DNA from: Takakia lepidozioides
Lineage: Eukaryota > Plantae > Bryophyta
Reading direction: 5' to 3'
Length of the DNA: 64,000 bases
Assembly: GCA_030704615.1 (NCBI GenBank)
Contig: CM060731.1
Location: forward strand, 37,262,001-37,326,000
A program made the translations under genes and the position numbers. The first letter of the stretch is position 1; every line of letters begins with the position of its first letter. The notes beneath the pieces are model-generated. The model was not told the origin of the DNA and ran no database searches. It saw only the letters and a program-made list of their open reading frames with translations. Of this stretch, positions 934-59,353 are shown in pieces.

Positions 934-964
<31 letters not shown>

Positions 965-28941: not shown

Positions 28942-29603
28942 GCAAAACATACTTTCTTCATAGCCTCAAAATATGAATGTATATAGTTTTGGAACACAAT
29001 AAATAGTTAATTTGCTCCAAACATTTGTACATATTGCATCAAATGATTTTCTAATATTTATTCTGCACATGCCAACTTCACTTCTAAGCTTTGAAAGCCC
29101 CATGAGAGGTAGCCACTACGTAAAATAACACAGTTTTCCAATAATTTGTGCTGGAAGAATGATTAACCTTACAACAGCCTGGAGACATAGTATCTTCAAT
29201 TATGTAAGAATAGGGACATATCCTTCCCTAGTGACACTTGGAAATTCAGTTAAAAATATCACCCCAAGTATGAAGATAAGATATACGCATTCACTGGATA
29301 ATATATTAGATGGACTACAGTTATTCGTCTATTTTAACCCTTAAAGGACGAGCTAACTTTTTACACTTTTTCCAAAAATAGCTAATCGAGTCTTCTAAAA
29401 TCCAGCGAACTCCAACCATGGTTACAACAATTTATAGTGCAAATGAACGGAGTCCACTGCTGTCACTGATATTTACCAAAAGTTAATCCCTAACTTCAGA
29501 CTCCCAATGCAATAAGCAACCTAAAACCCCTAATGAATTATCACCTAACAAGCTTTAGATGTATCCATCGATAACAAAATCAAGAGCAAAAATGCCACTC
29601 CCC

Positions 29604-30730
29604 AAGATAGCACGGGCGTTGGACATGTCTTCCAAGGGAACACCTCTTGTGTTTAGAGTTCCACATCTGGAAGGGGATGAGAGATTCGGCTCCTGCAAGA
29701 GGAAATTGAACACCCCACCTGGTTCGGATTCCGATTTGCACGGGGCAGACCGTGATAACTTCTCCACGCCTCGTGTCCCTCTACATGAGAAATATATCTC
29801 CGGACCATCTCTTCTTGAGGAACCTGCGACAGGACGGCAAGCTTCAACATATAACATTCCCATTGAAATGGTGCAAGAGATAAATTTGCTCCCTGATATT
29901 ATGGAGTCCATCACATTTGGCACATAGAGCGCACAACTGCAGGGTCTCGTGTCAAATGTACGGCGATCAGGGCAACCAATTCTGAGAAATGCACTTCTTC
30001 TATATCCAGAGATGGTGCCCGCACTCCAGCTCCAACTTTCACTGGTTTGATGCACCTATATGAGCAGTCAGAAGCCAAGAACCACAAGTTCTGGTTCTGT
30101 GCAGACGATTGTGGGAGTCGTATGCATGGAACTGTGCGACCTTCCGTGGTGATGAAGCCAACTCCACCAGCTGTTTGGCCCGTGAAGTTGGGAACAAATC
30201 TCACAAATCAAGAGATTGCAATGCTGGAAGAGGCAAGGTTTTCCCTTGCAAGACAACCCTGTGTGCATGCATCTGCTTCCAGTTCTGGAAGTACAAGGGT
30301 CCCTCCGCTAGATGCTCATTTGTGCCCAACAAAACGAAATGGAAAGCTTGTTCGGCGTTTCCCTCCAACTGCAGAACACTTCGGCAAGGTGGAGTCCGCT
30401 AGAATGCTCCAAGTTCGTGTTTCCAGCACGACGGATGTGCCCGATCCTGGGTATGGTAAGGTGTACACAATGATCACCTCGACATCTGCTGTTCACGATA
30501 GGGCGTACGACATCACTGCTTCCAATTTCCCCAATTGCACCTGTCCTGATTTTGTTGAGATGCTATCAACCAGTTTGGGCAAGAGAGGTAAATTCGTACC
30601 CTGCAAACATTTGTACTTCATCTTCGTGAAGAAGATGGTTTGTGATCCCAAACGTGACAATTTCATCCACCAGGCGACAATGAGTTTCAACGAGATCAAT
30701 ACTCTCTTGCAACATGATACAAGCACATAA
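29604..30730 (+). pseudogene. MULE-like transposase C-terminal part with SWIM zinc finger (displaced by inversion)
   Basis: SWIM motif Y.I......NCTCPDF...PCKHLYFIF. Its start KIARALDM continues ...RSGDP from 32642 on the minus strand. Confidence 0.8.
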
Positions 30731-31452
30731 GTAGATGACTTGCTGTTTCTGGAATGTGGTGAATGTTCAATCCGGTATCGCAAATCTGAATTCAGGTTGG
30801 TTTGAACTGTGAGTATGCAAAGGGTGCAACCATGATGTATAATGTGTAGTTGGAACATTGTCACTATAAAACATTTCAATTCAATAGCAACATTCGTGAG
30901 GTTGTGGAATGATATGGTAGGCCTTCTCCCTCCATTATGCTTCCAATTGTATAATATGTGTGCTCTCTTTGACAATTTTATGGAGCTCATGCAACATTGG
31001 TCCTGTGGATGTCTACATGTGCTTATTTCCAATGTTATCCGAATTGTCAATGTTATTTGGGGAGGGTCGGGGTGTTTCCTATATCGTCATGTATGCCACT
31101 GAAGTTGTGAGGTTAGTTTGTCGTCCTTGTAATTGTAATTGTCAAAATTAAAGTATTAATTGCAGATTATTGTGGAATGGACGCTACAGTTGTGGGCTTA
31201 TTTCCTGTTTCGGGTGTTTCATGATAGTCTTCATGTTATTTACCAAATGATTGCCCAAGTTAATCCCACAGTCATAGGACCCTCGGGAATAGGCTCCTTA
31301 TGTTTCTGCTCACGTGGCGTCACCTCAGCACCCAACTCCATGTCAGCTTGCTGACATCAGGCTCACGCAATGTCAGCAGGATTGTGGGCTCACGCCACCT
31401 CTACAGCCGTGAGCGTACGCTCACGCGCAAGGCTCACACCGTTGCGTCGTTG

Positions 31453-32646
31453 AAATTCAACCAGCACTCTAGGTTCTAAGCCCTGGCAAGCAATGTGGAA
31501 GGCATGGCATACCTTGAGGGGATTTCTATTTCAGAGAATGCCAATAAACAGACCAGAGTGCTTGCGGCAACCAATCTTTGCCAATTACAACTTGGACTCT
31601 GAAATCTAAGACAAACCCCAAGATGAGCTTTTTGGGAAGGTCAAGGCTTCACACACATTGCTAGCATGCAGATCCAAGGGAAGTTCCTCCCGCTTGCGGA
31701 TGTGGTGCAGGCTGCGGGAGGACAAAGAGAGAGAGACTGGAATACCATTTGTGAAAACATCCCACAGTATATGTTTCAGTTATTGTCGGAAAGCGATGAG
31801 CTAGGCAATACCCCAGCTTGGATGGCCTCTCGGCAAGGGGATGGTCATTCTGTCACACTAGTTCTATCTGTGATTGAAAGAAGGGCATCATGCTTACACT
31901 TCAGAGCTGACTGTGAAGGCTCCCTAGCCTTCCGTGGCAACATTGAACTACATATGCAATACCTCTACCACATTCGGGTGCTGGACTGCGAAGGAAATGC
32001 TAACTGAATTCCACCAATCAATCAGGAAGTCCAGTGGGCTTACCATATCTCATTGTATTGCTTTCTAACTGCCCCCTTGCATGATCTCCAGTTTCATCCG
32101 GGGGAGTGGAGGTGGATGGATACTAAGCACTCCCCCATCTTTGCATATTCGGTGAAGATAGGCTACTCCATTCTCAACCCAGCTTGCTCGTTCCTTTATA
32201 ATTGGCAATCAAAGTGGGATAACCATAAGCTCACTCAAAGAAACTGGGATACCATTTGGAAGGATGTCTGGAGAAAAGATAGGGCCACAAAGATCTCGGC
32301 CTTTCTATGGAAGCTAGCACACAGAGTTCTCCCAGTCAGACAAGCCACCCATGAGGATCACCCAACCTGCACTATCTGTCAATCGCAAATAGAATCAATA
32401 GAACACTGCCTAACATCATGTCATTTGGCCTCTAGGGTGTGGCAGGTGGTCTTATCTTTCTACTCGCATTGGGCCTCACTCCCCTCCCCTCCGCCCTCCT
32501 CCCTGCTTATTCTCAACTGTTTGCCTGGCCATCATCCCTCTTCTTGTCCTGTTTGGGATGCACTAAGAGCACTTACAAATGGAATTTGTGGAAAGCTAGG
32601 TGTGTTTGGGTTTCAAGGGCAAGCCCCCAAGGGGCAGATCGCTTGG
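31453..32646 (+). mobile_element. L1-type LINE ORF2, 3' part (zf-RVT)
   Basis: WKDVW...KISAFLWKLAHRVLPV...CTICQSQIESIEHCLTSC...WNLWKARC. It continues the minus-strand LINE broken at 49317. Confidence 0.85.
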
Positions 32647-35012
32647 ATCCCCTGATCTGCTTGCAGTACGCAACATCAACTCTTGTTTGTCCGGACCCTT
32701 CCCACCAACGCCTCCTCTCAAGAAGTCACGATATTTGGTTTGTTGTTGGAGTGCACGTATGAGATCATCTGTTGTTGCCAAATATAAATCCCGACCCCGT
32801 TTCCCGGACTGTTGCAACCATGCATTGTGCACTGTCTCTGCCAAATTGCAAGATGGCATGTCTGCCATTTCCTCAATGGACATGTTCTGTAAAGTGAAAA
32901 ACACACTTCAGAATATCCAAGAGGTTACAACACCACCCAAGCATATGCAGATCTGCACCACGAAACAATATGGAAAATGCATGCAGTACTAGAGACGTAT
33001 TGTTGTCATGGATGCTCCCCACTGTCTGTACTAGAAGTGCCAAAACACCAACCAATCTTCCAACGCTCTCATACTCTCAAGTGATGCTGCTCCTGAAGAG
33101 AACCACCAGGCACGAATTGTCTAGAACAATGTATTCGCCTCCGCCATTGATTTTGCATCTTTGTACTCTTTGCACAACTTACGATGATGTGTCTGCATCT
33201 CAGGTTTGATATCTGCTTTCGTATGTTTCTCCAGAGATTGGGTCCAATGGAATAGACATGTACGCTCTTTTCCCTCCATTGGCACCTTTGGGTTCCCCGA
33301 TCCGAAGATAATTCATATAGCATTGAAATTCGCCTGTGCACTATCTGCCATGAAACCAGCAAAATTCGGAGCAGGGACGCCATGACACCCCATAACACAA
33401 ATCAAGGATTTCCACATTAGCTGTTGGGATTCCGAATCCTCCGATTGCATGTCACTAACTGCAATTGTCATAACTCGCTGGTATACAGGATCGTACACAT
33501 GACAAGCCATAGTCATCCAATCTTTCACCCGTTTGACGTGATCAAACATAAGAAAATATTTCTCCAGGTCGCCACTCTTCTGCATCCGCCTGACGAGGCT
33601 CACCCCGCTGCCCTCCCCAGTTGTGGACATTTTGAAAAGATATACTTTTGTCGCTCCTTGCCCTGGAAACACACTGTCCTGTATGTAGTCGTACTTGCTC
33701 ATTCCTTTCAATTCCAGAATGTTGTCAATGTAGCCTCTATTTCTAGAGCGCATTCTCAATGCATTCACCTGATGGCGAATGTTGGGTGAACTCAATGTGG
33801 AGAAATGATCCATGACAATGTCCAATGTTGGTCCATCAAGTGTACTTCCCACAGAATCCACTGCACAGAAAATATGGTTGTCCAAGAGCTCTTGCTTGCG
33901 GCAAGAGCAATTGCAGATGTGGTTGCGGAAGGGTTGCTCTCGTACTCCTGTTTAATCAACTTCGACACTGTCTCAAGACTTTCCCTGTGATCTCCCTTTG
34001 AGACTGGATGGTTATGGAAACCAAAATGCACACAAGCTCGAGTCATAGTTTTCAAACGGTGCACCACATAGTACATTCTTGCACCACACACCGCCAGGCA
34101 TGATGGGACAAACTTGCAAAATTTACAAACGAAAGTATCCGTCTGTGTAGGAGCCGCCCCCGGCTTCAATGGATTTTCAACGATACCCTCCCACTCGCTC
34201 TGGTTGTGAGCCCCCGATTGAAGAAAGTGCCTGCAATTGAAATTTTCGCACCTGAGGTGCCCATTGCAAACTGTTATCCTGAAGATGAGTTTGTCGTGAT
34301 TTTGAATATTCGACGATTTCGTCCTACACCATGGGTGTCCATCATGTCTCTTGTCCATACCATGCATCAGGCTTGAAATACCTCCAATATGGTGAGGAGG
34401 AAGGAGCTTGAAAAGGATATCCCCATCAAACGTCTCTGGAAGATATTTCACAGGCACAATATTGAAAGTGTCCCAACAAATTCCCCACAACTCACTTTTG
34501 AAACCGGCCATCCCCCCCATTGCCTGTAGTTTTGGAATGACACTGGAGATCTCTTGAACATCATCTTGCACAACTACATGAGGATGCACGTCAGTAGTGA
34601 TTTCAGTGATGTCTTCATCTGATGAATCCGAAAGCTCAACGATTGGAGTGGAGGTTGTTTCCTCTTTTTTCACTACAACGTCCCTTTTGTCTTGAACCAC
34701 AGAAGCAGCCGTCCCTGGAGTAACATACGATCCAAGGGACTTTCGTCGAGGCTCCCCAAGGACCCTGTATCTCTAAGGCCGGACTCTCCACTGTCTGACA
34801 AGAGCTGTCTCATCACGGTTTTGGAAGGAGTACTTCAACAACTTCCTGTCCAAATCGTACACCTCTCTCTCCAAGAAAATTGTCCCATTTTGTAGCTCAA
34901 ACCGGGTCGTCAAGACATGTTCGAGAACAACTGCGAACCCATCGGCAAGGGCTTCTTTGGAGAACGGCACTGGTATCTCGTCAGAAAAGAACTCCGCTTC
35001 AGAGAAAGCCAT
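32642..35012 (-). pseudogene. MULE-like transposase, N-terminal and catalytic part
   Basis: GCM/WRKY-like Zn domain (DGHPW...CNGHLRCEN.NC...C..C...HFGFHNHP). Catalytic core MFDHVKRV...FMADSAQANFNA, CxxH motif (ERTCLFHW) and CNLAETVH glutamate motif. Several frameshifts. Confidence 0.8.
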
Positions 35013-36551
35013 CTTACTTCCTCTCGTAGGATGATCCCTTCTTTTCGCGGCTCTTTAGTGAAATCTGTTGAGTCAGGTCTCCAAAACACTGGAGAAGCAT
35101 GCGCAGAGGAAATACGGAGGAAGTACACACGATGATTGTGCACATTATGTTATTCCTTGCCTTTGGCGAGCTCTTCCTGACAACCCGCCGTCCCATTTAA
35201 TTTCTTTTTTTGTGGGCCCTGTAGACGGCGTTGCCTTACAAGCAATTTCGACAGGTGTTACACCTTTATTGAGATCGTCCTCAAGTAACAACAAAAACCT
35301 GCCGACTTCTCAAAAGCGTGCCAAAGGATTTGAGGGTGGGATAGCAACTGAAGTAAATGCATCTGAATAACACTATGATTGATCATGCGCACTTGGAAAG
35401 TCCACTTTGTTCAACTTTGATTTAACCACTATGGGAATGTCAGACAAAACGAAAGTGTGGGAGACGTACAATGATGAGTGTGGATGATATCCAGAAAGAT
35501 GGAGGGGTTTTATGTATTCTGGAACCTCAACCAAAACGTATTTAGCAAATATCTGACAATGAAACCACAACAATTACTCATTTACTTACATTGGTTTGAG
35601 TTTTTGCGCCAGATGGCCCCATATTTTCATAGGCAGATATCTGGCCCCAATATCCCATATAATCCCAATAATCCAGAGAATTCTCTAGGAGCAGTTAGAC
35701 CAACTAGTTTTTTATTCCTAATGTACTGACGTTGTTACATTCAATTAATGAAACCCTTCAAAAAAACGACACATGGTTCATTTAGTGTGACACACGTCAA
35801 GCTTCGAAAACTACATTGCAGACGAACAACTGTCCAATAATGGCTGACAGGTGCACTAATCAGGAAATGACATTTGTGTAACGGTCACACGAGAGGGAAT
35901 CCGAGGCTTCCAGAGACAATCCCTAATGCACGCAACTCCGCAAGAAATCGAGAGTCACTTTGTCTTTCTTGTTTCCGCACTTAGAGGGAGAGAGGTAGTC
36001 AAGCTGGAGAGGGTTCCTTCTACGATACGAAAGAGAAGGAAGTCATTGTATTTTACTTCCCTTAGAGAGAGACTCAGAGCAAGAGAGCAAATGACGAGGC
36101 ATCATTTGATGGAGAACACAGGGCCACAACAGCAGGTGAACGCGGAGACTGCAATAGATGAGCAGACGGAGAATGATAGTGAGGCTGCAGCTGTCATACA
36201 ACCAGAGGGAACAGTGAACGTTGGCAACCAGACAATGGAAGCAGAGATGATTCGCAAGGAAACCGAAGGAGGTGGAAGTCCTGGGAACGCCGAACCGGGA
36301 GACGGTCTGCAAACCCTAGACCAGACAGGAATGCCCACAGACGTGAAAGGGAAGAGGAAAGTTGTTGAGGGGGATCCTAACTCAAAACCAAAGAAGGCGA
36401 CCGTAAGTTTTCTCCACCCTTCTTTTTCCTGTTTACAGATGTACGAACTAGGTGAGTGCAATCACCTAGAAAATCTAGTCCATACATGGAGCGATTTGTA
36501 AGTCCACTGAAGCAGGAGCTTTACACGAAAGTAATGAGCAATGAGAACTGC

Positions 36552-37764
36552 ACTGACCATCAGTATGCAGCTTTGATTTAAAATGAAGCCACGTATTGCA
36601 AGTTAGCAACAGTAGCTGTTTGCAATGGTCGGTACTGATAATCGCTGAGAGACGAGCATGTCCCTAATAACCTCCTGGGAGTTTACCTTCTGGAATGACA
36701 TGAGTTCTTTCACCTTGTCAAGGTAGTGCACTTCAGGTTCATTTGTGTCATCGCTATTCTCCGAACTCTTCGCAGAGTCGTCCCCATCTCCAGAATCTTT
36801 TTCCTCTGTTCCTGTCAGCTTGGTCTTCACAGTTTTCTACATGAGGCCATGCCAATCAGAGAGTCAGATATGTGCAAATAGTGATGGTCGGCACCGACAA
36901 TCACAGTATAATGTTTCAAAATAATGTGCAATGTAGTTTGCTTACATAGGCAAAAACAATGACTTCACAATGACTACAAAGTGATAAAAAAATGTTGAAT
37001 GCAGCTTCTTTACAACTGAAAGTACTCTAAGTTCTCAAGGAACAACGATTGGCAGTACCGACAATCACAAACTGTATCTGTAGCAAACAATAACAGAATA
37101 TGGCAAACCAAATCACTATGTCTGCATAGTGATGGTCGGTACTGACCATCAGTCTGTCTTGTCTCAAATCACAGTGATTGGCGGTACCGACAATCACAAC
37201 CATCTACTCTAACCTGATACAGACGAATGCAAACCAAATCACTATTCCACTGCATAGTGATGGTCGATACTCTTACTATGCATGCAGGTACAGGAAGGTC
37301 TCAAGGAGCAGCAAATGACATTAACGACAATTAGAAAACACTACACTAGAAAAATTGATAAGATGGGTTTGGTGCAAATCAATATGACTCATAGTGATTG
37401 TCGGCACCGACACTCACTTTCTTTTGTATAAAAAAGAACGTGGAATGCAGATTGTTTGAAATGCAAGAAATCTAAGTTTTGAAAGGAAAGCGATTGGCAT
37501 TACCGACAATCACTTCTACCTGTTGCAGAAAACAAGAAACAGAGTGCTGGAAAGAAAATCAGTATGACTCTATGGTGATGGTCATTACAGACCATCACTA
37601 TTTCTTGTCTCATAAGAATGTGCAATGCAAATGTTTTTACACATGAAGGTACAGTATGGTCTCAAGAACAGCCAATCATAAACAACTACTCTTGAAAACC
37701 TGAAAGAGAGGAATGCAAAGCAAATCAATATGACTTCATAGTGATGGTCAGTACCGACCATCAC
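36552..37764. repeat. Dispersed array of a 24-bp palindrome, consensus GTGATGGTCGGTACCGACCATCAC
   Basis: Copies at about 36552 (partial), 36623, 36881, 37045, 37129, 37174, 37257 (partial), 37394, 37490, 37575 and 37741. Further copies at 46294, 46409 and 47798. Confidence 0.9.
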
Positions 37765-38425
37765 TTTTTGTTGACTCTTAAGAATGTGCAATGCAGCTTA
37801 TGTGCACATGGAAGTGAACATCGTTCTGAAAATTGGAAACTGATTTCGTGCATGGATACAGACTTGGTGCACAAGTTTTTTACGTGTCACTGACGGATAC
37901 AAAAGGGAAAAGCACATTAGTGTCTCTTGAGATCACCGACACCTGGGATGAGTGCTGGAAAGATGTTAATGATGAGTTCGAGCTGGGCCTAATGATGGGA
38001 AATAACACCCAACAATTCTGCAACCACATGTTCTATGTTTGGGACGGCAACCACCGTTTGCTGGCATGGATGGGATACATTCAGAAACAGCATTCAAAAG
38101 ACAAAGTCAAGCATGTTGCTGTGGAGGCAATGGTTCTGGATCCTGGAAACAACATCGCGAGGCTTCTTACAACTATGCACGATGTGAACAAGTAAGTCAT
38201 CCTAGAGACTCCATTGCCTCTTGAATGTCTTGTTCATCCCACCAAAAATCGATGTTTACCAATGCATTGTTTTTTCTCTTTTTGCAAATCGATAGAAAAA
38301 TTTCATGTGACAACTAGCTTGGTCCACACACTTTTCCGAATTCAGAGAATTGGTCTAATGAAGCTGGATGATTTTCGCACAGTACTCCATCCTGATATAA
38401 TCAAAAAGTGCAACACAGGAAGAGC

Positions 38426-38893
38426 TGTGAAGCCTTAAAAGAAGCAGGACGAATATCTGCCTATCCTCTCAAGTGCTCTTCAAAACAACGGGGGGAGAAC
38501 AAGAAGAGCGTGCATGCACGCGAGAGGAGGATCTCAACGAGCGAACTGACAGAAAATCATACACACATATCGCATTTAGACAGCTTTCCACATCTACATA
38601 CACCAGAGTACATCAGCTGGCTGACACAAGGTCAGGCCGCCACTTTATACAAACCCTAGCTGCATGCCTTCCTGACGCGTGGCGAGGCGTGTCAGGCTGA
38701 GCTCGCTGCGCCACATCAAAACCCTAGATCTGTTGAACGGCTACGATGCAGCCACAAGCCATAACTAACCCTGGCTATGATATCTTTGTAACGGTTCAAT
38801 GGTATTGTAAGCCAAAAATTTATACTACGAATGAGTATCGCCGTTTTGGATGAATAAGGTAAACCTGTGATGAAGAAAATTTGGGGCATCACA
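38426..38893 (-). mobile_element. Solo LTR related to the 15518-24353 gypsy family
   Basis: TG...CA termini, 4-bp TSD GAGC (38422-38425 and 38894-38897), shared blocks TGTGAAGCCTTAAAA and GTATCGCCGTTTTGGATGAA. Its removal restores the cargo frame NTGR|AAGTWYSL. Confidence 0.9.
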
Positions 38894-40429
38894 GAGCTGC
38901 AGGCACTTGGTATTCTTTGACTCGAGAGGCGTTTCTAGACTACATGTATGCGGTAAGGCCGAACCTGTACTCACTTGTATTTTTCAAAACATGTTTATAA
39001 TTCGTTTTTACTTATCCCTACTTTGATATATGCAGCAAGAACTGGCAGAGGCCGCTCAGAAGGGGAAATCCGAATACTACCGCACTACAACAGAAGAACT
39101 TTAGGACATCAAAGGGTGTGGAGGCAACAATAAAGAAGGAGTATGAAATCCGGAGAACTAAACTGATGTCCGCCTTCTCGAAGCAGCTTAGAATAGTGGA
39201 TCCCGGCCTTGGGGAGGAGTTACTTCTGCAGATCAAATCTCACTATGACAAACATGTGCACCCGGAGATGCAGCAGGAGAAATTGCACCGGCTGGCCATC
39301 TCAATGGTTGACCCCCAAACCAAAATTAGATGGCTGGAGATTTGGAACTCAGATCAGACAGTGAAGGACTTGAATCAGTTTCCTAAGAGCACAATCCAGC
39401 CTGGCACAAAGGTGGAGGGAATCAGTGACATTGTGTTTGACAACTACAAGACCACATTTTGGAGTCAGGTGTGTATTCAATGAAGTTCCATCTTTCGTGA
39501 CTTCATGAATCTAATGACTTCATTATTTGCAAAACTGACAGATGTACCCTTTGTAGCTGGAGGAGCGCGCCATCCTTCACTAGAAGCACTCGTGTCATTT
39601 ACCACTTGGGTAACGACTCATTTTGAGTCGGAAAAGTCAAAAAATTGGGATCGACTGGAAGTTACAAACGACTAGTTACAACGACGTGGTAGTTGGGTTG
39701 GACATCCAATGATTGGAGTGGTAAAGGACGCAGACGCGCGAACAACTGCTCAGCGATTAATGCGATTAATGCTGAAGAACCACGTGGCGTAAACAGGCGG
39801 GCCGCTCGTGTGTCTGACCTTTTGGGCTGACTTTGGTTTTTTCCTCCGGATGAGTGAACCGACTCACCGAAGCGCGGTGACACATGGACGCGGACGTGGA
39901 CGCAGACGTGGACGACGATGTGGACGCCGACGTGGCGGCGCCACGACGAGCAGCACTGCTTTCACGTGGCCACGGGCCTGGGGCGCCACGTGGTAGTAGA
40001 CCACATAACTTGCACTGCTACATGCCCAGTGACAATTGCGACTGCGAAAGTTGGCGCAACCACTGCTTTACTACTTTACATGAAGTGCTCGAAATTACTT
40101 GAACAATCATTCATAGTGATTCATGCTTTGGAGTTTTGGTGTTTGTAGTGAGTCGACTAGTAATGCCATACAAGAGAACTAATCATGCATTAGAAATGCA
40201 CAAACGATGAAAGACATGCCATGAAACAAAATGAAATGAAACAAAATGGTACTTTCTTACATCTGCAGAAAGCTCAAAGAGCTTATGGGACAAAATGAAA
40301 AACACAAAGTAAAAAAGCAGCCCAAAAGCTACTGCTGCTCTGGGGATTGCCTAAGGGTCAAGGCCTCATGCAAGTAAGCTGCCAAGCAGTTCTGATCCTC
40401 ATAATGCAAGACTTCAGTGAGTTCCACGG

Positions 40430-41680
40430 AATAGACCATCTACCCATGGAGGTTTCTTGTAGTTATTGATCCACAGGGAATCATAGGTAATCTTGTGCTT
40501 GAAATTTGGCCCTCTAGGATGAATCTGGACCACACTCTATCCCTGCTCCTTCAGCTATCCATGCCCCTGCACAAATCATGCATTCATCCTTGCCTTGCTG
40601 CTAGTAGCTGACAATGACAACCTACATTTGTTCTAGGAAACACCCAACTCAACTTATCACACTAGTTCCTATGCTCAATTGCAACTGCTACTCTCTGAAA
40701 TGTAGCAGACATTCACCTTTTTGCCTCGGTTATCCCATCATTGACTGGGGGCAGAAAAGTATTCATTCCACAACTTCTCCTCATGTCTGTTACTTGTTTT
40801 TTGATACTTTCCTGTTGTCACATAGCAGTATCATGTCAAAGTCACTCCAAACTAGATTCACTCAACCAGTTAACTTGCAGAATTCAACATGGAAATTTTG
40901 GGCCGATTATGATAAGAGGGAAAAACAAGGTGAAATGTGCTGAAGAAGATGCCTTCATTAACAATGTCTGATTTTATCAATTGTGCCGTTGCTGCCAGTT
41001 GACCATATACCCATGCAGGTTTCTTGTAGCTTCATAGTTAATCTGGAGCTTGAAGTCCGGCCCTCTTGGGTGAATCTGCACCAACACTCTATCCTTGCTC
41101 CTTCAGCTATCCATGCCTTGCACGAATCATGCATACAACCTTGCCTTGTTGCTAGCAGTTGACGATGACAGCCTAGACTTGTTCTAGGAAGCACCCAACT
41201 CAACTTATCACACTAGTTCCTATGCTCAATTGCATCTGCTACTCTCTATAATCCAGCAAACATTCACCTTCTTGCCTCGATTGTTCCATCATTGACTGGG
41301 ATCAGAAAAGTATTCATTCCATAACTTCTCCTCGTCTGTGTTACCTGTTTCTGATACTTTCCTGTTGTCACATTGGCAGAATCATGTCAAAGTCACTCTA
41401 AACTATCGAAGCTTCACTCAACCAGCTAACTTGCAGAATTCAGACATGAATAATTAGGGGCGATTCTGATAAGAGGGGAAAACAAGGTGAAATTGAAGAA
41501 GGTGCCTTCATTAGCAGTCATTACACTCTATCCTTCGCTCTGCCATATTGTTGAACACTCCCTGTCCACAAGGGTATTGTTCAGAATGACATCTGCCACA
41601 ATTCCAGCTTTGACGATGCAACCATGGACCTCTTTGCCCTTCCCCAGCAGGCTTGCACATGCACTACAAACGCAAACAAA
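40430..41680 (-). repeat. OSB/PDF-motif repeat units plus a PPR fragment
   Basis: Same unit as 54.8-59.1 kb (EEKLWNEYF.DPSQWWDNRGKK / HPRGPDFK...W), followed by KGKEVHGCIVKAGIVADVILNNTLVD. Confidence 0.8.
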
Positions 41681-44329
41681 ACTGGTTGTGGCAAACTGGG
41701 AGCAATATGTGTCAGAAGAAACCACTGAAACAAATCTACAGCTTACAGACTGTCTCTATCCTCAAAATTGGCAGCACATCACTCGCTGCTATGACATATA
41801 TTGCCCTAGACACACATTGTCCTAACTGCCATCCCCCAAGATGCTACCCCCACCAGACTTCTCTCACTTGGGTCCTTGCAAGGCTGACTTCCAGCTTTGA
41901 CTCTGTGCGTGGGGCCTATCGGACAACATACACCAGCAAGCCCTCCCCCTATCCTGCATCAACTCATCTCAGCCTTATCAACTGCACAACATGTGATGGG
42001 AGTGAGTGCAACATGGGAAAGAGCCACAACACATGATGAGCTGTAGGGAAGAAGCAACATCGTGCAAGTAAAGCAAATGATGAAGCAAAAAGACGAGGCA
42101 ACATGGGAGAAGGGAAAATGGGGTCCAAGGGGTGAGAAGGTCAACTGGTCAACAATGAGGAACTGGCTCTGGAGCACTATGTTGATGATTAAAGGGAACA
42201 GCAAATACATGTGGGGCATTGCAGCAAAGTGCATGCCAACGAGGGTCAGAATAGTGCAAGAAAGACTCCACAGATGGTGGGCAGCCAAGGGAGATGCAGT
42301 GAGACAAGGCACTCATGGCAAGGGAGCTGCCAAGACAAAACAATTGATTAAGCTACGGAGAAAAAGGAAAGCACAAGATCAACTACGAGGAAAAGTAGCA
42401 ATTCAGGCATGGGAGCTGCTGCTAAAACATGAGGAGGAAGACATACGAGGTGAAGCATCAAGGGAACCAGTTGAAGATGAGGAAGATGGAGCACACTTTC
42501 CTGTCAAAGGTTGGCGGTCAAAGAATGCAACCCAGCAATCAGAAAGTGAGGCACCCGAGGCTGGACTGCTGCAAAGAGATACAAAGACAGGAGCTGAGAA
42601 TGAGATGTTGCATTTTGTTGAGTTCCCCACACAAGGGTTGTTTGGCAAGCAAAACCCCAGGCAAGGATGAGAGGTGAATCTGGGATAAAACCAGCAGCTG
42701 GGAGTGAGGAAAGACACAAGGAAGGGCAGCAATACCTTGTCAAATCTGAGGGTGATGGTTGGAGAAAATTAAACAAGGACTGGAAGTATGGGAGCAACAA
42801 TCGCATGAAGAAAAATCTGCCTAGAGGTTGAAGAGTGAAAGGGAGGAAGACAGGCACCTCGCTTATAAAAAGTGGAAGGGCAGGGTAGAAAACCTGATGC
42901 CTGAAACTGATGGGAGCTCATGGGAGACTCTGCCAAGAAGACTCCAATCAGCTGGTGCCAACAATCGGACTAGTGAAAGATCGCCCTTGGCTGGCGCAAC
43001 ACCACGAAATAAATGCAGCCCTGATAGCATGGTGAGTGGGGCACCAACAGAGCCAGAAAATGAGGGAGAAGGAGGAGACTTCCCTGCCAAGAAAGTCAAT
43101 GACGGGCCTGCAGTGGCATGCAAGGAAAGGGACACTGTAAGTATTGCCAACAGATGCAAATCAGTGCTCATTCATTCGAAAGCACCACGGGAGATGAAGG
43201 AAAAGACACCTGCAGGGACGTTGAAGCATAAACGAGGAGAGCACTTCACTTGGGAAGAAAGTGAAGCATTGGAGAACGAGGCTGATGACTGGCAGTCTGA
43301 AAAGGAAAGGCGGTTGTGGGAAACCCTGCCAAGACAACCATATGGAGAGAATCAAGCAGGTGGGAACTGCCCTTCATTGGGGTGGTGCAAACAAGAGCAA
43401 GACCAGAAGCTGAACCACATGAGAAGATAGTGTGTCATCACAGATGGAGACCCTGGAAAATGCTCTGCCCAGGAGATGAAGAACATTAGGCAACTAGAAA
43501 CGTGGGGGGCTGAATATGCTATGCAGTCAACTTGGCTTGTTGAATGCTTGCATAAGAGATGAGGGGTTGCTGTTAGTATACGGCATTGAGTTCATCAAAT
43601 CCTACAATAGCCCACCATCGCTGCCCACTGCTTACAAACTGCCACAAAAACAGTTTCACAGGACTTACAGATGATTGGTGGAAGGCAAGGCCCCTCGCCA
43701 TGGGCTAGATTAATTGTATATTGCAGCCCAGAACAATGACGGGAAGTCATCTAGGGCAGCAAACCCCATCTTGGCAGCGTCTTTTGTGTGAGAGAAGTCA
43801 AGCTGAACCTGCTCATCATATCGAGTGGGATGGACCAGATGTAAAGCTGCCAAGCCAACCACACTCATATTCGCACTCAAGCAACATAAGCTGGAGCCAT
43901 TTTCATAAGAATACTCCTTCTTCAACTTGCAGTGAACGGGCATAAAACTTCACAATGTGCAGCAGATTGATGGACCAAGATGCGGAGCTGAATTGGGTAT
44001 CCAGTTGGGCAATGCTGGTTTCAAAACCCCGTTCCATCCCTACGTTTTGAAGATTTGGCTTGAATGGGCACACTCCGGCAGTGGAAGGCTCACGGAGTAA
44101 TGAGTTTGGGCTGATATGCATGCTGACATGCCATGTCGGTGCAAAGAACAACGTTCTGAGTGGTGATTGTGATCTCAAAATCTGCCCCTGCATTCAAGCT
44201 GATTTCTCTCTCGAGCAGAGCCGCCTTATGGATGTTCCAGCCAGTGTCCAAAAATAGCTCAAGTGCAAGACAACAACATCAGCAAGGCATGGTTAGCTAA
44301 GCAAGGTCATGGTGGAGAGGCATTTGAAC

Positions 44330-45220
44330 TCTCTGAACGTAATGTGGTCGGACTTCACCCCCTCCCACATCAACTTCTCATAGGTCTCCAAAACCTGCAA
44401 TCCCCGCCCCTGTTGTGCATGTCCTGCGATCATCACTTTCCATGACACCACATTTCGCTCAGCCATATTGTTGAACACTCCCTATCCAGAAGGGTATTCA
44501 TGTTCAGAATGACATCTACCACAATTCCAGCTTTGACGATGCAACCATGGACCTCTTTGCCCTTCTCCAACAGGCTCGCACATGCACTACAAACACAAAC
44601 AAATGTAATATGCTTGGGCTTCACCCCCTAGACCCACATCATTTGCTCATAGGTCTCCAAAACCCGCAATCCCCGCCTATGTTGTGCATGTCCTGCGATC
44701 ATCACGTTCCACCACACCACATTTCGCTCAGCCATATTGTTGAACACTCCTTGTCCACAAGGGAATGCTCCCACGTTTGGCATACATGTCGACGAGGTAT
44801 TGTTACATCTGGTACAGTTCCAGCTTTGACGATGTCACGATGGACCTCTTTGCCCTTTACCAAGTCTCCAGAGCTGCTAGGTTTGCACATGCATTGCAAA
44901 CACAAATGAACGTGACTCGGTCAGGCTGCACCCCTTCTCGCAACATTTGCTCATATGTCTCCAATGCCCTCATCCCACACACATGCTGGCCATATCTTGC
45001 GAGATTCAGCGTGTTCCTTGAGACAACATCTTGTTCAGCCATGTTATCAAACTCTCCCTTCGCAACTTCATAGGTCTCCAAAGCCTCCATCCCACGTCCC
45101 TGTTGTGCATACCCTGTAAGCATCGCACTCCACGACACTACATCTCGGCAAAACAGGCTGAAATAGCTCGAAGAAGAAGGTGCCCTCACCACATTGTCCT
45201 CTACCTTGTGTCATGACCCA
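44330..45220 (-). pseudogene. Tandem PLS-PPR fragments
   Basis: MAERNVVSW, ALETYEQMLREGVQPDRVTFICVCNACANLAALE; many frameshifts. Confidence 0.85.
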
Positions 45221-48200
45221 TTGCGGATTAGACTGACCATGAACCCAAGAAGACCTCTTGTGTGTGCTGCTTGTATCTGTAGTCAGGTAATGTGGGATTG
45301 GTTCGTAAGAACCACCACGGTGCAGCTGAGCGGGCAGAGATTAAAATATGGGCTGCTAAGACCAAGCTGATTCCCCCAAGAACCTTGTGATCATTAGGAA
45401 GAATACCAAATCATGGTACAAAGGGGAGCCAATAGCCCACATTTGCACATAATGCACCCTTGACGCCATAAACGCTTGCAACAACAGGACATGGGCCTCG
45501 ATTTGGTCCTCGTCCTTCTCGCATCACTTGCTCGTCTCTATCTCAAGCCTCCATCCCTCTCCCAACACTTAGACAAATTCAGGCAAAGGACAAAGTTACT
45601 CTTCCACCCTTAGATCATTTTACATCCGATGATTAGAACAATCTCTACGAGCCACACAAGCCCTAAAATACATTAAAATATTCCACGTCATGAGCCATGT
45701 GGAGCACTTATAAAAATTTAATTTTTGAATAGGGTGTGCAATGAATGCCTAGTTGTTAAGAGTCGTTCTCTAGTGCTTAAAACCACTTGTAATTGTTGTT
45801 TTAAGAAAAAAACAATTTACGTAATTGAATTAAATCGCCGCGAATATTGCGCCGACTGCGGAGTCATTGATGCAACTTCTATCCGCCATTAGAAATGCGA
45901 ATTTATCCGTTACGACTGTGCAGTAGTAACAAACATCTCAAAGTTGTTCCCTCAGTGGTTTTGGACATGCAGTCGATTCGGAACAGACACGAATGCTTCT
46001 AGTGCTTGTGCTCGAGCAGAATTTGAAGGACTTGAATATTTCCATTATTTCCCCGCCTCAAATGACATTGGAGGCATACACAGGAAGTGGAGAGGTCTCA
46101 CTTGGCGATATTGTTTTTTCCGGAAGTTTTCGAAGGACGGTAACATTTTGCAGTCCAACAACTTTGACAGTCGGGTTGAGGGGGAGTGGGCCATGATGCG
46201 AGTTGTGTACAGGTGCAATGTCCAACTGGAAACTGTATTGCCTCTTGTGAGAAATCCTTAGGCTTTGTTAGCAGTGTTCTTCACTGATAGGAAGTGAATG
46301 TCGGTGCCGACAATCACTTCCATTGCTGTGAGCTTCTATAGATAGATATTTCATTCACATGGATTAGGGAACTTAGGGTGTGTTGGCAGTGTTATTGAAA
46401 GGAATTTTGTGAATGTCGGTGCCGACCATCACATCTAGTGCTGTTGTGAGCTTCTATAGAGAGAGTTTTCTTGTACCCAATAGGGTAGGGATATTTCCCT
46501 GCAGAATATACATGGAAGCAAGTGGTTTGTAAATTGTAACCTCATTTTCTTGGTCGATTATTTCATTCTGTAGTACTGCTGTCAGGATCCAGTGTACTGG
46601 TTTACATATCATGAAACGTACATTATTTCAGGAATGTGATAGTCGCCACCGGCACTTAGAAATGATTTCTTTCTCACTTCACGCTTTGGTGGGTTGGGTT
46701 TTGTTTCATGGTTCGCAGGTACACAAAATATGTGCTTATGGATGGAAATCACCTCAGCGGTATCCCATATTATCTTGACATGTGGCCTGACCCTGACAAC
46801 GATCCAACCATGTACACTGCAGGGATATTGAGGGACTGGAGTCCTGCACACTTCAGGGACTGTGGTTGGTACCTGGACTGCCCTCCTGAGTACACGACTT
46901 TTCAAGAGCAGCAAATGAAATATGTGAACAATCATGCTGAGATGCTGGCACCTCTGAGCGACGAGGAGTGCCAAAAAACATAGCAGCATTGGCTGCCAAG
47001 GAGCCTGATGCGAAGGAAATAACCCAGAAGGGCAAGAAGGGGGGGCGCAAGACCAAAGACAAGGGTTATGATGGCATAGCCAAGTCACCAGCGAAGACAA
47101 AGGATAAAGACGAGTTGAAGGAGAAGGAGAAGGAGAAGGAAAAGGAAAAAGAGAAGGGGAAGGGGAAAGAAAAGGAGAAGGAGAAGGAGAAGGAGAGTGA
47201 AAAGGACTTCACTGCCGGAAGGTATACCCACACAATTCAGTGCGTGTTCGATGCCAGGCCACACCCTTCCAGTGCTGATTGGCAGGGGAGATTAAGATTG
47301 TCAATGAGGGATGGCTGGCGATGATGGAGAGTCGGAAGAAAGGATACACTGGGGTGCCTTCGCCTACTTGGGATAACATGATCTCTTTCCTTAATCTGAT
47401 GGGAATTTCATTTTCTTTCCTGTGCATTTGTAAGTGACATTGGCAGTATTGATCTTTGTTTCTTTTCAAACATTCTTCTCTTCGTTCTCAAATTGAACAT
47501 GTCTGTCGTAGGTGAGCACTGTTCCCTCCTTCGTGTGCGGTGTGCGGAAAACGTTTGCTGCTGACATGGTCATTCTTGACATCCCGGACGGCCAGGCTGT
47601 TCCAGAAGTTCTTCCGAAGGGCAAGACGCCAAGTTGGAACAAATTTGATGACAACTACTGAAGTTGGGTGTTCGGGTTCTGCAATAATTTCTTTTCTGAA
47701 GGGGGGTTGTCCTGGTCAGCTGGTATGACGCATCCCTCATGCTTGTGCTTTCATGCTGCGTTTCAGTGTTCTTTGCAGCGTAACTCTTGAAGAATCTGTG
47801 ATGATCGGCACCGATCATCACAAATACGTGACGGATCAGTTTGTTGCATGCCTATGTTTTGTTCGTTCAATCTACAAACATCCACTATTATTTGTGTTTG
47901 GCACCCTAACCTTCAGTCTTTGCTAGACGAGGATGTTTGAGGCGATCTGCCTGTGGAGGATTCGCACCTCAAAGACACCATCCTCCATCCGCAGCTTTGA
48001 GATTTCTGACCAGGGGTGTTTCATCAACCCCCCGTATGAGCCGCATATCGATGACATTTTGTACAACTTCATGCAGTCCAGTCAGACTCTCAAGAGACCA
48101 GATGGCACTCCCTGGAGAGGTGCAAAGGAGAAAACCCCAGCGTTCATGCCGACACTGCTGGAGTCATGCAGCCACCATTCTGCACGGGTGGTCGACCTCT

Positions 48201-49316
48201 CAATATCCACAGGTTCGTTCTCGCCCTTCAGATTTGGTTTTCTTTCACCAGTTTTATCTTCGTAAATGTCCCCCCTCCAACCTGTTCATGTCCTCCTGTC
48301 TGGTGCAGGAGCAACTTACCATGCGTGCAAGGCAGGCGGAATAACCCTTTTTGGCATGGAGGGTGACTCTGACCTATACAAGAGTGTGCTCCTCCCCTTT
48401 CTGTCTGGCTCTACGTCAGGCACACAGACTGAAAATATTCAAATCCGGAATGATGAGGATCCAGAAGATAAGCAGGTCGACAACAACTTTTCATGTGAGT
48501 AAGTCTGCCATTGACTTCTCATTCTTTTTTTGGGTTCAAAGGAATACCCATACTTCATCCTATAAGTAGTTTCATTTTTCTTCCTGTGCAGGATATGCAA
48601 CTATTGGTCTTCAGCAGTGAAAAAAATTAGTGACGAGACTGCATATGACAGCCCCCTCCACAGTTTTGTGCTTCCTGTGTATGTTGAAGCAATGGCACTT
48701 CGCATGTCTGAGGCTCCATCCCTTGACCCCTTGCTGTCTGATAGCTGCCGTAGACATCGTAGTTCAGGAGTTATGAAATTCTTGGACTTGGATGCAGATG
48801 AGGCGGGGATAGATTGTAGTGACTCGGAGTCATATTGACCTTCGCAGTTTTCATGGATTTTTTTCAAACTCATAATGCAAGTTTTAATTGATTGGACTGC
48901 ATCCGACTTGTTCCGGCAGAATGGAAAATGTATTGGAGGAGCATTCAAATTCATGAATACATCCCATCAACCCCACACACTCATGACATTTTTCAACCAC
49001 AACACATTCATACATTACAAAATCATCCATTTCATATTCATCCAACGCCCATTCATCCATCCTTCGCATTGTTCGTATTCATCCATCCAATTTTCATCCC
49101 ATATTCGTTCATCCATCCTACCTTCATCTGATGCTTTCAGTGGGGAGTGGCCACATTATGTTAATTTGCAGTCGTGCGTGTTCCCGCGGTGAAGGGTGCT
49201 ATTCCGTGGAAATACACTCTGTTTCTTCCTCGGCGCGGTGGGAGCCTGGTGACTTGACGTGGCGTGAGCCTGTATGCGCTCACGCCACCAGGCTCATGCC
49301 GAGGCATTCCTCGTTG

Positions 49317-51940
49317 AATTTCTGCCTTGAACCACCCATCTGAGGGAGTGTGCCCAGAGCGAAGATGAGGATGGAATTGCACCCATGAGGTAGGGTTGAA
49401 CAAGTTTGCTCCATGGGCTATGCCTGTGTCTAATTGCTCGTGGTATCCATTTTGCTAACAAGGCCTTAATTTGTTTGCCCGGGTCAATGACACCCAGCCC
49501 TCCATTTCTTTTCTTTTGACACAGTTGATCCCAGCCAACAAGCTCCAAGAAGCTAGCATTTTCTTAAGCTTGGAGATGACTTCTCTCATGGTACTTTGCG
49601 GGGAGAGATTCAAACCCATATGGTGTCCCAACAAAGTATGGGATTCTCCATCTTGCAGCCACCTTAGCCCAATATCGTCTCCCCAGGTTTGGTAGTGTGC
49701 AACTGTAGCTTCATTTTGCAACTTGGAAAGGATCCCTACAGATTTCCTCCAATTAACTTTCAGCCCAGAAGCTTGGCAAAAGGTATGTAAAGCCTGGAGT
49801 GCCTTGTCAATGTTTTGTCTACAGGAGTTATCCAACAGTAGGACAGTGTCGTCTGCATACATAGAAATCTTTTAAAGCATTTCTTCATGGAAAGTAGGCA
49901 GGTGAAGCCCCACAATGTCATGCCTGTGATCCAGTAGGTGACCTAGCGAATCTGCAGCGATTAAGAAGAGGAATGGGGCAAGCGGGCATCCCTGCCTCAC
50001 CGACCTGGATATAGGGAACGGTTGAGATATAACCCCATTAACCATGACTCTGCTTGAGGCCGAGTGGAGCAGGATATGAATCCAAGTGAGGAAGGAGCAT
50101 GTGAGCCCAGATTTTTCCATTGCATGCATGAGGAATTCCCAATCAATGGAATCAAAAGCTTTCTCGAAGTCCAACATGAGAAAGGCTAGAGGTTGATGAT
50201 TTACCATAGCTCGATGAAGCGCCTCATGAGCCAACAAGATGTTATCCAGAATCATACGGTCCTTCAGGAAGCCAGTTTGATTTTTCCTAATAATTCTAGG
50301 CAACAACGGCTGCAACCTCAAGGCAAGTGCCTTCGCAATGATCATGTAAGTGGAATTGAGCAATGTAATCGGGCGGTAATTAGCCATGCTACCTCTATCC
50401 CTTTCTTGATAATCAGAGTTACAAGACCCTCCGAGATCTGAGATGGCATCAGCCTTTTGTCGAGAATGTCATTGGCCATAAGCAGGAATTCATCACCTAA
50501 TGTCTGCCACATTACTTTGGAAAAACTCAAGGCCTGGAGATTTCTTGCATGCCATAGATTCCACTGCCTCACCCAATTCGTCACTGGTAAATGGAGCTGT
50601 AAGGGAGTTTCTATCAAACTCGAAAATTGCACTGGGGATCCTGTGAATTAGAGCAGCCCTAGCTTGATCTCTAGAATCAAATTGTGTCAGTCATTGAAAG
50701 AGTTGTTTGAAGTAGACTACTGCAATGGAAGCCATAGCCTTGGGGTTGTCTGTGGGAACACCAGAGTGTGGATCTGTCAAAACTAGCACTAGGGTAGCAG
50801 CTCTTCTTTGTGCCGCTTTCGTAAAAAAAAGGCTTATTCATTTTCAACGACCAGTTGACTCCTGCTTTGATCTGAATGAACTTTTCCTTGGTATGCAAGA
50901 GCAGTGAGAGATTCCTTTTGGCCGTGTTTTAGGCTGCCATCATATAGGGTCCTTCATGTCCAGATTGCAACTGATACTGGCACACCTGAAGACATTCATT
51001 CAGCGCTTTTTGCTTTCGAGAAGTCTCATATGCTTTCTTCCTTGCGATATGTTGGCAGGCTTTTCGCATCTCCTGGAGCTTTGAGAGAAAAAGCAGCGTT
51101 GGAGAGGTGTAGGGCAGCACAGCCGTAGTCCAGATGGTTTGCAATTCTTGAACCACTAGTGGGTCCTCCAAATTGAATGGGTTTAATTTAAAAAAGCCTC
51201 TCCCCCTTGTTCTGGAACCTAGCATACTGAGCTGCAAATTTATGGCTGCATGATCAAACCCTGGCTGGGTGGGATCGAACGGAATCCTCTTTGACCACTG
51301 CAAGAGTGAACCGTACAATAGAATCTATCCAGCCTTGCTTGATATAAACCTGGTGGGTTTCTGTTGTTTATCTAAGTGAACTTCAGCTCCCCATGGGCTG
51401 GTACAGTGGCGTCAAGAAGACCAACCGCCATACAAAGCGAATCCCAGGAGTTTCTCTCAATGACCGATAAACTGTGGGCAGAGGGGCCGTAACAGTCATC
51501 CTCGTCTTCAACCATGTTGAAGTCACCACCAAACAACCAATGCCGAATGTTTAAAAATTGGAGCAACTTAATTCTGATTAAATCCCACAAAGTCACCATT
51601 TCCTCTTCTGAGTTAGGGGCGCAAATGTTTAGTAGGCCCCGCTTATCCAAAGAGTGCCCTAGATTAAAGGAAAGGAACTGCAATCTCCCCTGAACCCAGA
51701 CCTCACTTGACAGGACATACTGACTCAGAGAAAGAGAAAACAAAACCGTTGTCCCCCCTCCAAAATTTACTCAAGTGGGGTTCCAGAAGGCACTAGCAGG
51801 AGCCCATATGGAGCCCCCAAGCAAGTTAATTTTCAATTAGTCGAGCTTATACTCTTGAATGAAGATAATGAAGATTTTATTTACAAAGTCAGAGGCCCAC
51901 ATTCTGAGCCTGGCTCTTTTTGGGGCCGAGTGCTTAGAGC
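49317..51940 (-). mobile_element. L1-type LINE ORF2, 5' part (AP endonuclease + RT), degenerate
   Basis: EN: GGDFNMV, RLDRF, FDH. RT: NYRPITLLN, LDFEKAFDSIDW, VRQGCPLAPFLF, YADD; then W..LC..K..GGLGV. Confidence 0.92.
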
Positions 51941-57700: not shown

Positions 57701-59130
57701 CCATCTACCCATGCAGGTTTCTTGTATCTATCCTTCCACAGGGAATCATAGGTAATCTGGAGCTTGAAATCCGGCCCTCTTCTCCCCTTCACCCCTTCTC
57801 CCATCATTCATAGGTCTCCAAAGCCTCCATCCCGCGCCCCGGCTGTGCATACCCTGCAAGCATTGCGTTCCACGACACCACATCTCGTAGCTATAGTGTT
57901 GAACTCTCGTATCCTCAAATGCTCCCACATTTGGCATACATGTCCACCAGAGCAGTGTTCAGGATGAGTTCTGGTACAATTGCAGATTTGATGATGTCAC
58001 CATGGATCTCTTGGCCCTTTTCCAGGGTTGCCAGGCTCGCACACGCATTGCAAACGCACACAAACATTATGTGGTCGGGCTTCACCCCTTCGCCCATCAG
58101 TTGCCCATAGGTCTCCAAAGCCTCCATCCCATGTCCCTGCTGTGCATATATACCCTGCAAGCATCGCACTCCACGACACCACATCTCGTTCAGCCATCGT
58201 GTTGAACACTCCCTTTGCATGCACCCACATTTGTCATACATGTCCAGGGGTGTCCATAATGACATTTGGTAATCTGACAGGCATTCATGGTTGTCCCACC
58301 GTTGACTGGGGTCAGAAAAGTACTCATTCCACAGCTTCTCCTCATCTCTGTTACCTGTTTGTGGATACTTTCATGTTGTCACATTGGCAGTATCATGTCA
58401 AAGTCACTCCAAACTCAATTCACTTAACCAGCTAACTTGCAGAATTCAACATCAAAATTCAGGGCCGATTCTCATAAGAGGGAAAAACAGGGTGAAACAT
58501 GTGGAAGAAGGTGCCTTCATTAGCAGTACCTGATTACATCGAATGTGCCGCTGCTGCTGCGGTTTCCAATTGACCATCTACCCATGCAGGTTTCTTGTAG
58601 CTATCCTTCCACAGGGAATCATAGGTAATCTGGAGCTTGAAATCCGGTCCTCTTGGATGAATCTGCACCCACACTCTATACCTGCTCCTTCAGCTATCCA
58701 TGCTTCTGCACAAATCATGCATACATCCTTGCCTTGCTGCTAGCAGCTGACAATGACAACCTAGATTTTTTCTAGGAAACACCCAACTCAACTTATCACA
58801 CGAGTTCCTATGCTCAATGGCATCTGCTACTCTTTGTATTCCAGTAGGCATTCACCTTTTTGCCTCGATTGTCCCACCATAGCTGGGGTCAGAAAAGTAT
58901 TCATTTCACAGCTTCTCCTCGTCTCTGTTACCTGTTTCTGGATACTTTCCTGTTGTCACATTGGCAGTATCAAGTCAAAAACTATCAAAGGTTCACTCAA
59001 CCAGCTAACTTGCAGAATTCAACATGGAAATTTAGGGCTGTAAAACAGGGTGAAATGTGTTGAAGAAGGTGCCTTGATTAGCAGTGCCTATCAATTGTGC
59101 CCCTGCTGCTGCGGCTTCCAGTTGACATAG
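54800..59130 (-). repeat. Tandem array of about 0.6-kb intron-containing OSB/PDF-motif units interleaved with PLS-PPR fragments
   Basis: About 7 full or partial units. Spliced reading EEKLWNEYFSDPSQWWDNRGKK|IHPRGPDFK..ITYDSLW.DSYKKPAWVDGQL (AAG|GT...CAG|ATT). PPR blocks at about 56630-57375 and 57785-58265. Confidence 0.85.
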
Positions 59131-59353
59131 CACAGTGACATACTGCAGATCATATCTGAATTGCCCTTTGTGGATTCCAATGAAAGACTATTCAAGGTAG
59201 ACATGATATTCCTATCGATGGAATGTGAACTGATACTTGAACAGACTATGACTCTCACCTCATTGACAAACTATCCATGCAGCTTGACCTGAGACTAACA
59301 AATCTGCCATGGCCAAGACAGCCAGGCACAGGAACAAAAGTAGGTGTCCATAC

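Follow-up and report, generated by a model that had tools for sequence, protein, structure and literature searches.

ParB-type proteins load on palindromes near their own genes. In transposons, detailed knowledge of a sequence-specific escape from methylation silencing exists for VANC only, the accessory protein of the Arabidopsis VANDAL elements, where tandem repeats have amplified family-specific motifs in non-coding DNA, introns included (PMC5735166). The Plavaka element of Bostrychia carries PAG3, a ParB-like accessory gene next to tandem inverted repeats; it was proposed to bind and modify its own element, and the authors cite homologous genes in Mutator elements of Chondrus (10.1101/2025.02.11.637652). 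In Ectocarpus, Sola1-1_Ec32 combines ParB-like and N4C/N6A methylase parts in one gene on the strand opposite to the transposase, and self-modification was proposed here too (PMC12477816). In their accessible text, these algal papers propose a ParB-type self-recognition without defining the site. Here we analysed a 64-kb stretch of Takakia lepidozioides (assembly GCA_030704615.1, contig CM060731.1, positions 37,262,001 to 37,326,000; called the window), in which a 24-bp palindrome is repeated within the cargo gene of a broken transposon. Judged from its motifs, the element is inferred to be Mutator-like, with the transposase lying head-to-head with a gene for a predicted ParB-type domain fused to a methylase-fold domain.

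The palindromes are a genuine and conserved cis element, and the transposon that carries them is a land-plant variant of the proposed algal class. The ParB-accessory transposon concept is already in print for algae, so the self-recognising module of protein and site, which an earlier note on this DNA proposed, has precedents in algal transposons. New are the occurrence in land plants, the conserved core with swappable arms and the non-canonical methylase. Our literature searches, with most subscription papers and the supplements of the Bostrychia preprint outside their reach, found no land-plant description.

The palindrome in the window and in related elements

The 24-mer consensus equals its own reverse complement and is a perfect palindrome. 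Seven copies were found with up to 3 mismatches (0 in 100 shuffles) and 12 full copies with up to 6 mismatches, where the shuffles gave a mean of 0.02 and a maximum of 1. The full copies start at 36622, 36881, 37045, 37129, 37174, 37394, 37490, 37575, 37741, 46294, 46409 and 47798. Half-sites at 36552 and 37257 raise the upstream cluster to 11 and the total to about 14, in agreement with the earlier note, which had also listed the three copies near the methylase exons. All copies and half-sites lie within 36552-47821. As had been claimed, no copy was found outside the element in the window, where the sole match with up to 8 mismatches (4278) is at chance level.

The main array (36552..37764) comprises nine full copies and the two half-sites and was at first part of the cargo gene's intron 1. 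Two further copies (46294..46432) and a weak third at 46636 (8 mismatches) lie in an inferred intron before the exon at 46720, and palindromes occupy the same intron position in the relatives L050, L074, L079 and L080. The last copy (47798..47821) is in an inferred intron between the two main methylase exons, in a poorly conserved stretch with a low cross-copy depth compared to the exons. Upstream, the units of a tandem array have diverged, and the palindrome copies, 45-260 bp apart, are their conserved cores. Their core identity was 0.82 versus 0.36 in the ungapped flanks, and the comparison of the array with the three far copies, 9 kb away, gave 0.79 for the core and 0.33 for the flanks. The compensatory arm changes described earlier were seen in the copies at 47798 and 37174, where both arms are altered symmetrically. 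The central two bases are free, with TA, CA and TG in the window and CG, AT, TC and TT in relatives. All 12 central dinucleotides of the window copies are possible deamination products of CG; unlike the site centres, the flanking CG in the half-sites is mostly retained.

The introns were assigned from splice signals and homology, without RNA evidence, and on this basis the reported confinement to introns holds. The orientation and position of the array were altered by an inversion. This first inversion reaches from about 36647 to about 37815 and carries eight of the full palindrome copies, as well as the first half of exon 2, which now lies at 36648..36836 on the minus strand together with its AG acceptor (tblastn with P0001, E 4e-9). 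The inverted half adjoins the palindrome at 36622 and its acceptor is in phase with exon 1. In contigs of other copies, 36648 is joined to 37833 on opposite strands and about 36450-36470 is joined to about 37765. Because they join across it, the inversion is private to the window copy, and the original place of the array was therefore intron 1, with the opposite orientation. The same contigs (four runs, at most two samples) carry a piece that is missing in the window copy. They represent many diverged copies in which the motif was kept and the number of array units varies, with joints that skip or repeat units, several of them at palindrome edges.

Such joints, the varying unit number and the inversion edge beside the 36622 copy would also be explained if the palindromes were cruciform or hairpin structures of the DNA, or self-perfecting by-products of tandem duplication or template switching that have no protein partner in the element and may promote rearrangements. 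The long symmetric arms in L083 and L040 are in line with this. Such an origin does not account for the conservation of one CpG-rich core across clades with unalignable flanks, whose exon-2 proteins are only 32-48% identical to that of the window, and the edges of a second inversion in the element have no palindrome. We therefore regard this explanation as unlikely.

The distribution of the sites was followed in metagenome stretches, of which 144 encode a relative of the cargo. The best 80 were kept, and 54 remained after the removal of duplicates. The order of the cargo exons is common to the relatives. The exact 24-mer of the window occurs in 0 of the 80, so the expected presence of the motif in other family members applies to the arrays, which related copies and relatives do hold, and not to the 24-mer itself. 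A de novo search showed that the relatives have their own palindrome families around the core TCGG-NN-CCGA, which is also the core of the window sites. Counted in bins, with deamination allowed and six paired arm bases required, the sites of the 54 relatives numbered 46 in the 3 kb that precede the ParB exon, with 0.4 expected, and 12 between +1.5 and +3.5 kb, with 0.3 expected; each of the five remaining bins had 0-1. A search for the exact core TCGGNNCCGA with no arm filter gave 25 occurrences within these zones (144.9 kb) and a single one in the 231.3 kb outside them; the six neighbouring bases on each side of the core pair at 0.52-0.88, far above chance. L083, which was fetched after the core had been defined and is close to L030, has 3 sites of this core. 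In 28 mapped loci, 83 of 84 sites were outside the protein-matching segments and preceded exon 2, exon 7 or the first methylase exon. Among 26 loci with at least 1.2 kb of upstream DNA, 17 had at least two upstream sites under a relaxed rule. L007 shows two upstream sites under a looser rule, and in L070 only about 0.65 kb separates the transposase from exon 2. A second, AGCT-rich palindrome type is interspersed with the main one upstream of exon 2 in L043, L074, L079 and L080; it is absent from the window.

When placed on a tree built from 42 ParB exons, the arm types (labels symmetrised) group by clade. The earlier note had suggested checking whether the motif co-varies with the cargo; since kin share labels, the grouping is read as co-descent only. 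The arms also bear on the possibility that the element is driven or protected by a host factor (transcription factor or chromatin protein) recruited to the sites. A core kept in different host lineages would be in line with binding by a conserved host protein, and the array is near the shared promoter region. Symmetric arms that differ among families from the same contig sets, and zero copies outside the element in 64 kb, are difficult to reconcile with such a binder, and we hold it to be very unlikely.

Located in inferred introns of a gene that is transcribed, the sites are able to fold back, as would be required of RNA hairpins that act as a small-RNA source or in splicing control. In the window alone, G-U and A-C mismatches numbered 8 and 2. 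Over 111 sites they were 111 and 127 (p 0.33), and the lack of a G-U excess over A-C argues against an RNA hairpin. In addition, the palindrome centre gives no natural loop and no Rfam match was obtained. An independent micro-MITE (miniature inverted-repeat transposable element) should be dispersed, which is not the case in the rest of the window, nor in the relatives' DNA outside the zones with its single exact core. Both the RNA and the micro-MITE explanation are most unlikely.

The cargo protein as candidate reader of the sites

Among 50% cluster representatives, 341 relatives of the cargo were found at E 0.001; seven of ten that were looked up are from Adiantum and one is from Riccia. The 223-residue relative P0005 was modelled with a 96-sequence alignment up to its end at residue 223, with a predicted local distance difference test score (pLDDT) of 90.9. 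The model aligned with the nucleotide-bound ParB 7bm8 over 97 residues (Z 8.8, root-mean-square deviation (rmsd) 2.1). In the realignment, nucleotide-bound ParB structures came first (Z 8.5-8.8, rmsd 2.1-2.6) and sulfiredoxins (Srx) scored lower. In a search of 48,161 chains, all 8 matches with Z of at least 5 had the ParB/Srx fold. Foldseek also placed ParB and Noc at the head of its list, with a best E of 5e-3 and none under 1e-3. The pocket motif G-N-H-R-x-x-A is conserved in the 96 sequences (G 93, N 100, H 94, R 88 and A 90 percent), as is the arginine of an upstream V-R-P (93%). We take a GxxRxxA pocket motif with an upstream arginine to define the CTP (cytidine triphosphate) switch of ParB/Srx proteins. 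Modelling of P0005 confirmed the ParB/Srx fold predicted for the N-terminal domain of the cargo.

The model of the window's own partial exon (pLDDT 65.5) had no structural match, and profile searches of the PDB sequences gave nothing significant. In viral contigs two 28-residue matches were detected (E 3e-4). The prokaryote genomes yielded one 10-residue match and the intron-bearing contig L083, and no prokaryotic donor was identified. L083 is likely plant-derived, probably a plant contamination among cyanobacterial sequence; its positions 1-4691 are an intron-bearing, near-intact copy that could serve as an intact template. The fern relative P0141 scored 0.95 to clusters of DUF3723 by language-model features. 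DUF3723 is a conserved cargo of fungal Starships with an unexplained function (10.1101/2021.12.13.472469, 10.1101/2025.02.28.640899). The cargo has no Pfam match to DUF3723, no publication was found that joins Starship, ParB and DUF3723, and we take the score as a lead only, hinting that DUF3723 is ParB-like.

The C-terminal domain resembles N4/N6 methylases, which made up 28 of its 30 Atlas matches (at 0.93). The Pfam comparison with PF01555 gave E 5e-4 for P0178, under the curated cut-off. The motifs follow the order IV, X, I of beta-class N4C/N6A enzymes, and motif I is near canonical. For a catalytic motif IV, presumably (D/N/S)-P-P-(Y/F/W), the PP was absent from all 18 DNA rows and 8 proteins compared. 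Instead, D-x-P-E was found in the open-frame loci L004, L012 and L083 and in P0173 and P0176-P0179, and an aromatic fourth residue occurs only in L050/L051, L080, P0042 and P0174. A homologue search with the second methylase exon of the window found none, and the cargo matched no plant-transposon accessory domain in Pfam. Because motif IV is never PP-aromatic, open-frame relatives included, methylase activity of this domain seems doubtful, and so does the suggested modification of the sites by the cargo. With the aromatic residue missing from motif IV, the domain may instead bind or flip bases. In algae, ParB-linked methylases with a phage origin are mentioned (PMC4738411).

We favour the view that the palindromes are candidate loading sites of the cargo protein, which would shield or mark cognate copies of the element; this seems to us somewhat better than an even proposition. 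The core was kept across distant lineages and the flanks were lost, which indicates a reader of the sequence, and the dyad symmetry indicates a dimeric binder. Loading of the cargo is favoured because the solved structures closest to it are from proteins that load on palindromes in the neighbourhood of their genes. As a predicted fusion of a ParB-type clamp and a methylase-fold domain, the cargo would read the two half-sites as a dimer, and CTP-gated closure and sliding, as in ParB, would spread it along the element. The spread protein might then shield or mark the element against host silencing, the output being the least certain step. By analogy with VANC, the arm changes could serve as a family-specific address, and intact copies would act in trans on their own family only.

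The proposal of the earlier note that the sites belong to the cargo protein thus has the ParB fold, the arrays at the same place and the shared core in relatives on its side, and competes with the transposase as a possible binder. The zinc-finger domain of the transposase could bind the sites and activate or organise cognate copies, with the cargo introns merely being free space. In the window, as in six groups of relatives, transposase and cargo gene are arranged head-to-head, the main array is a few kb from the transposase start, and a Mutator transposase with sequence-specific activation has been reported (10.64898/2026.08.24.746577). Against this, the sites avoid the termini, which carry different repeats, and recur in introns 6 and 7, distant from the transposase. 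Their perfect dyad symmetry fits a dimeric ParB-type binder, and inverted-repeat arrays are described next to the ParB gene of another, unrelated superfamily of transposons. Binding by the transposase is therefore rather unlikely in our judgement.

Several observations weigh against loading of the cargo protein on the sites. A helix-turn-helix reader was not demonstrated in the cargo, and the P0005 model ends at residue 223. The site zones were chosen after the de novo palindrome search, the relatives are frequently copies out of few host populations, and the grouping of arms by clade, being co-descent, is no proof of co-evolution. Template switching in palindromes can create arm symmetry without selection. 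Of the 26 loci mentioned above, 3 had one upstream site and 6 had none; L020 and L044 have long upstream DNA without any site. The arm symmetry of 30-38 bases in L083 and L040 exceeds the footprint of one dimer, and the core in L002 has a shorter spacer. L002:8-195 is a five-copy array with window-like half-sites two bases closer together, a natural spacer variant.

A bolder version of the clamp reading, tentative and rather to be doubted than believed, is that a transposon lineage widespread among seed-free land plants combines a eukaryotic sliding clamp gated by CTP with a family-specific palindrome code of fixed core and swappable arms and a re-purposed D-x-P-E methylase fold, and that the DUF3723 of Starships is the same device. 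Here, the clamp would drag the methylase fold along the element and write or protect an epigenetic state. The candidate site is resolved to single bases; its core is conserved, and several arm variants occur naturally that correspond to clades of the protein. Specificity swaps, CTP dependence and base modification can therefore be tested directly. If true, a ParB-type sliding clamp would operate on eukaryotic chromatin and might become a programmable epigenome tool.

The broken element and its surroundings

A pentatricopeptide repeat (PPR) gene and remnants of a long interspersed nuclear element (LINE) and of Gypsy identify the window as land-plant DNA. The plus strand carries the cargo gene (36091 to about 48838), which is interrupted by an insert resembling a long terminal repeat (LTR) and by a 6-kb foreign block. 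Exon 1 (36091..36402), as inferred, is acidic and of low complexity, with a GT donor in phase with exon 2. The second half of exon 2 (37830..38195) encodes the predicted ParB/Srx-fold domain with the G-N-H-R-x-x-A motif. Decayed middle exons of a predicted helical region follow at 38289..39470, where exon 3 is split by the LTR-like insert; this insert (about 38422-38854) is 68-73% like the 449-base LTRs of a Gypsy element at 15525-24349. The foreign block (39520..45950, edges approximate) lies in an inferred intron, contains reversed and duplicated PPR-gene fragments with self-BLAST matches to 54800-61700 and is free of palindromes. GC-rich repeats are found in it at 39790-40050 and a high-copy end near 45700-45950. 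Its content suggests a Pack-type element. A frame at 39541-39789 had been considered a cargo exon and was dropped, as it is matchless in the relatives.

Exon 7 (46720..47370, plus strand) has a conserved W-Y-L-D-C segment followed by a KE-rich linker and is frameshifted. The three methylase-fold exons (47515..48500, plus strand) are in the beta-class order with motif IV D-I-P-D, a P-W-R-G segment and motif I V-V-D-L-S-I-S-T-G, and are broken by stops and a deletion. The last exon (48593..48838, plus strand) has matches in L004, L056, L057 and L059. The window copy is dead and unable to make the cargo protein.

The transposase is broken as well. On the minus strand at 32650..34900 its zinc-finger DNA-binding part and D-D-CxxH-E motifs were recognised by eye, the latter being what we take to be the catalytic motif of Mutator-like elements (MULEs). 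The 3' part with a SWIM finger (29601..30730, plus strand; Pfam SWIM E 0.002, under the cut-off) is inverted relative to the remainder. The described MULE layout is zinc finger, transposase and SWIM (PMC1702500). No Pfam MULE or GCM match was obtained for the transposase in 17 frames in and around the element, which is why the class is given as inferred, and it had no match in the PDB. A supposed link between GCM and 'Ghost' MULEs was not borne out, GCM being absent from the accessible text of PMC6446971, and a GCM-like label is unconfirmed. In six groups of relatives the transposase is upstream of the cargo on the opposite strand.

The left terminus (31280..31470) has short subterminal repeats unrelated to the palindrome, and the right terminus is at 49150..49330. 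Near 31470 and 49330 they adjoin the two halves of one LINE, in which the target duplication is imperfect (8 of 9 bases, one gap), and the ends of the element are only loosely alike. A second inversion (about 29601-32650) has turned around the left terminus, one LINE half and the 3' part of the transposase, with a short microhomology between its edges. Outside the element, an intact PPR gene of 752 residues lies on the minus strand at 59786-62044, and upstream of it are several partial, degraded duplicates. A probable host gene at 3243-6114, also on the minus strand, has exons that contain exonuclease-like motifs and the beginning of a mismatch-repair-like segment.

Comparison with known systems

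The cargo resembles the bacterial ParB-parS and Noc-NBS systems (PDB 7bm8, 7bnr, 6sdk, 7ol9) in its N-terminal fold and in the repeated palindromes near the gene. Unlike bacterial ParB, it has the pocket D-G-N-H-R instead of G-E-R-R, a large insertion, longer sites and a fused methylase fold, and it belongs to a eukaryotic transposon. A ParA-type ATPase was not found by Pfam in the 17 frames. With VANDAL/VANC the element shares the putative Mutator type, an accessory gene and a family-specific motif amplified in non-coding tandem repeats. The VANC motifs are asymmetric words of 8-9 bases (PMC5735166), whereas the window sites are palindromes; the cargo combines a ParB fold with a methylase fold and matched no VANC-type entry of Pfam. 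The element is therefore not a parABS system (no ParA), not VANC (another protein) and not a canonical amino-methylase (motif IV).

A bacterial-type amino-methylase fold in a land plant is also known from DN4MT1 of Marchantia, a host gene with the canonical TSPPY motif, in whose report ParB goes unmentioned in the accessible part (10.1101/2021.02.12.428880). The DUF3723 Starships have a different mobilising enzyme, as far as their accessible descriptions go, and the likeness to them is a language-model lead without an alignment.

The algal elements are closest. Ectocarpus Sola1-1_Ec32 likewise has a single ParB/methylase gene opposite to the transposase, a likeness by description; it has a Sola transposase, is from a brown alga and is described in a main text that does not use the word palindrome (PMC12477816). 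Bostrychia PAG3 shares with the window element the eukaryotic DNA transposon, the ParB-like accessory gene beside the transposase and the inverted-repeat arrays. As described for this red alga, its ParB is fused to a 2-oxoglutarate (2OG) oxygenase, the methylase is separate and the element is EnSpm-type. In the window, by contrast, the cargo is one intron-rich ParB/methylase gene of a Mutator-like element in a land plant, with the sites inside the gene.

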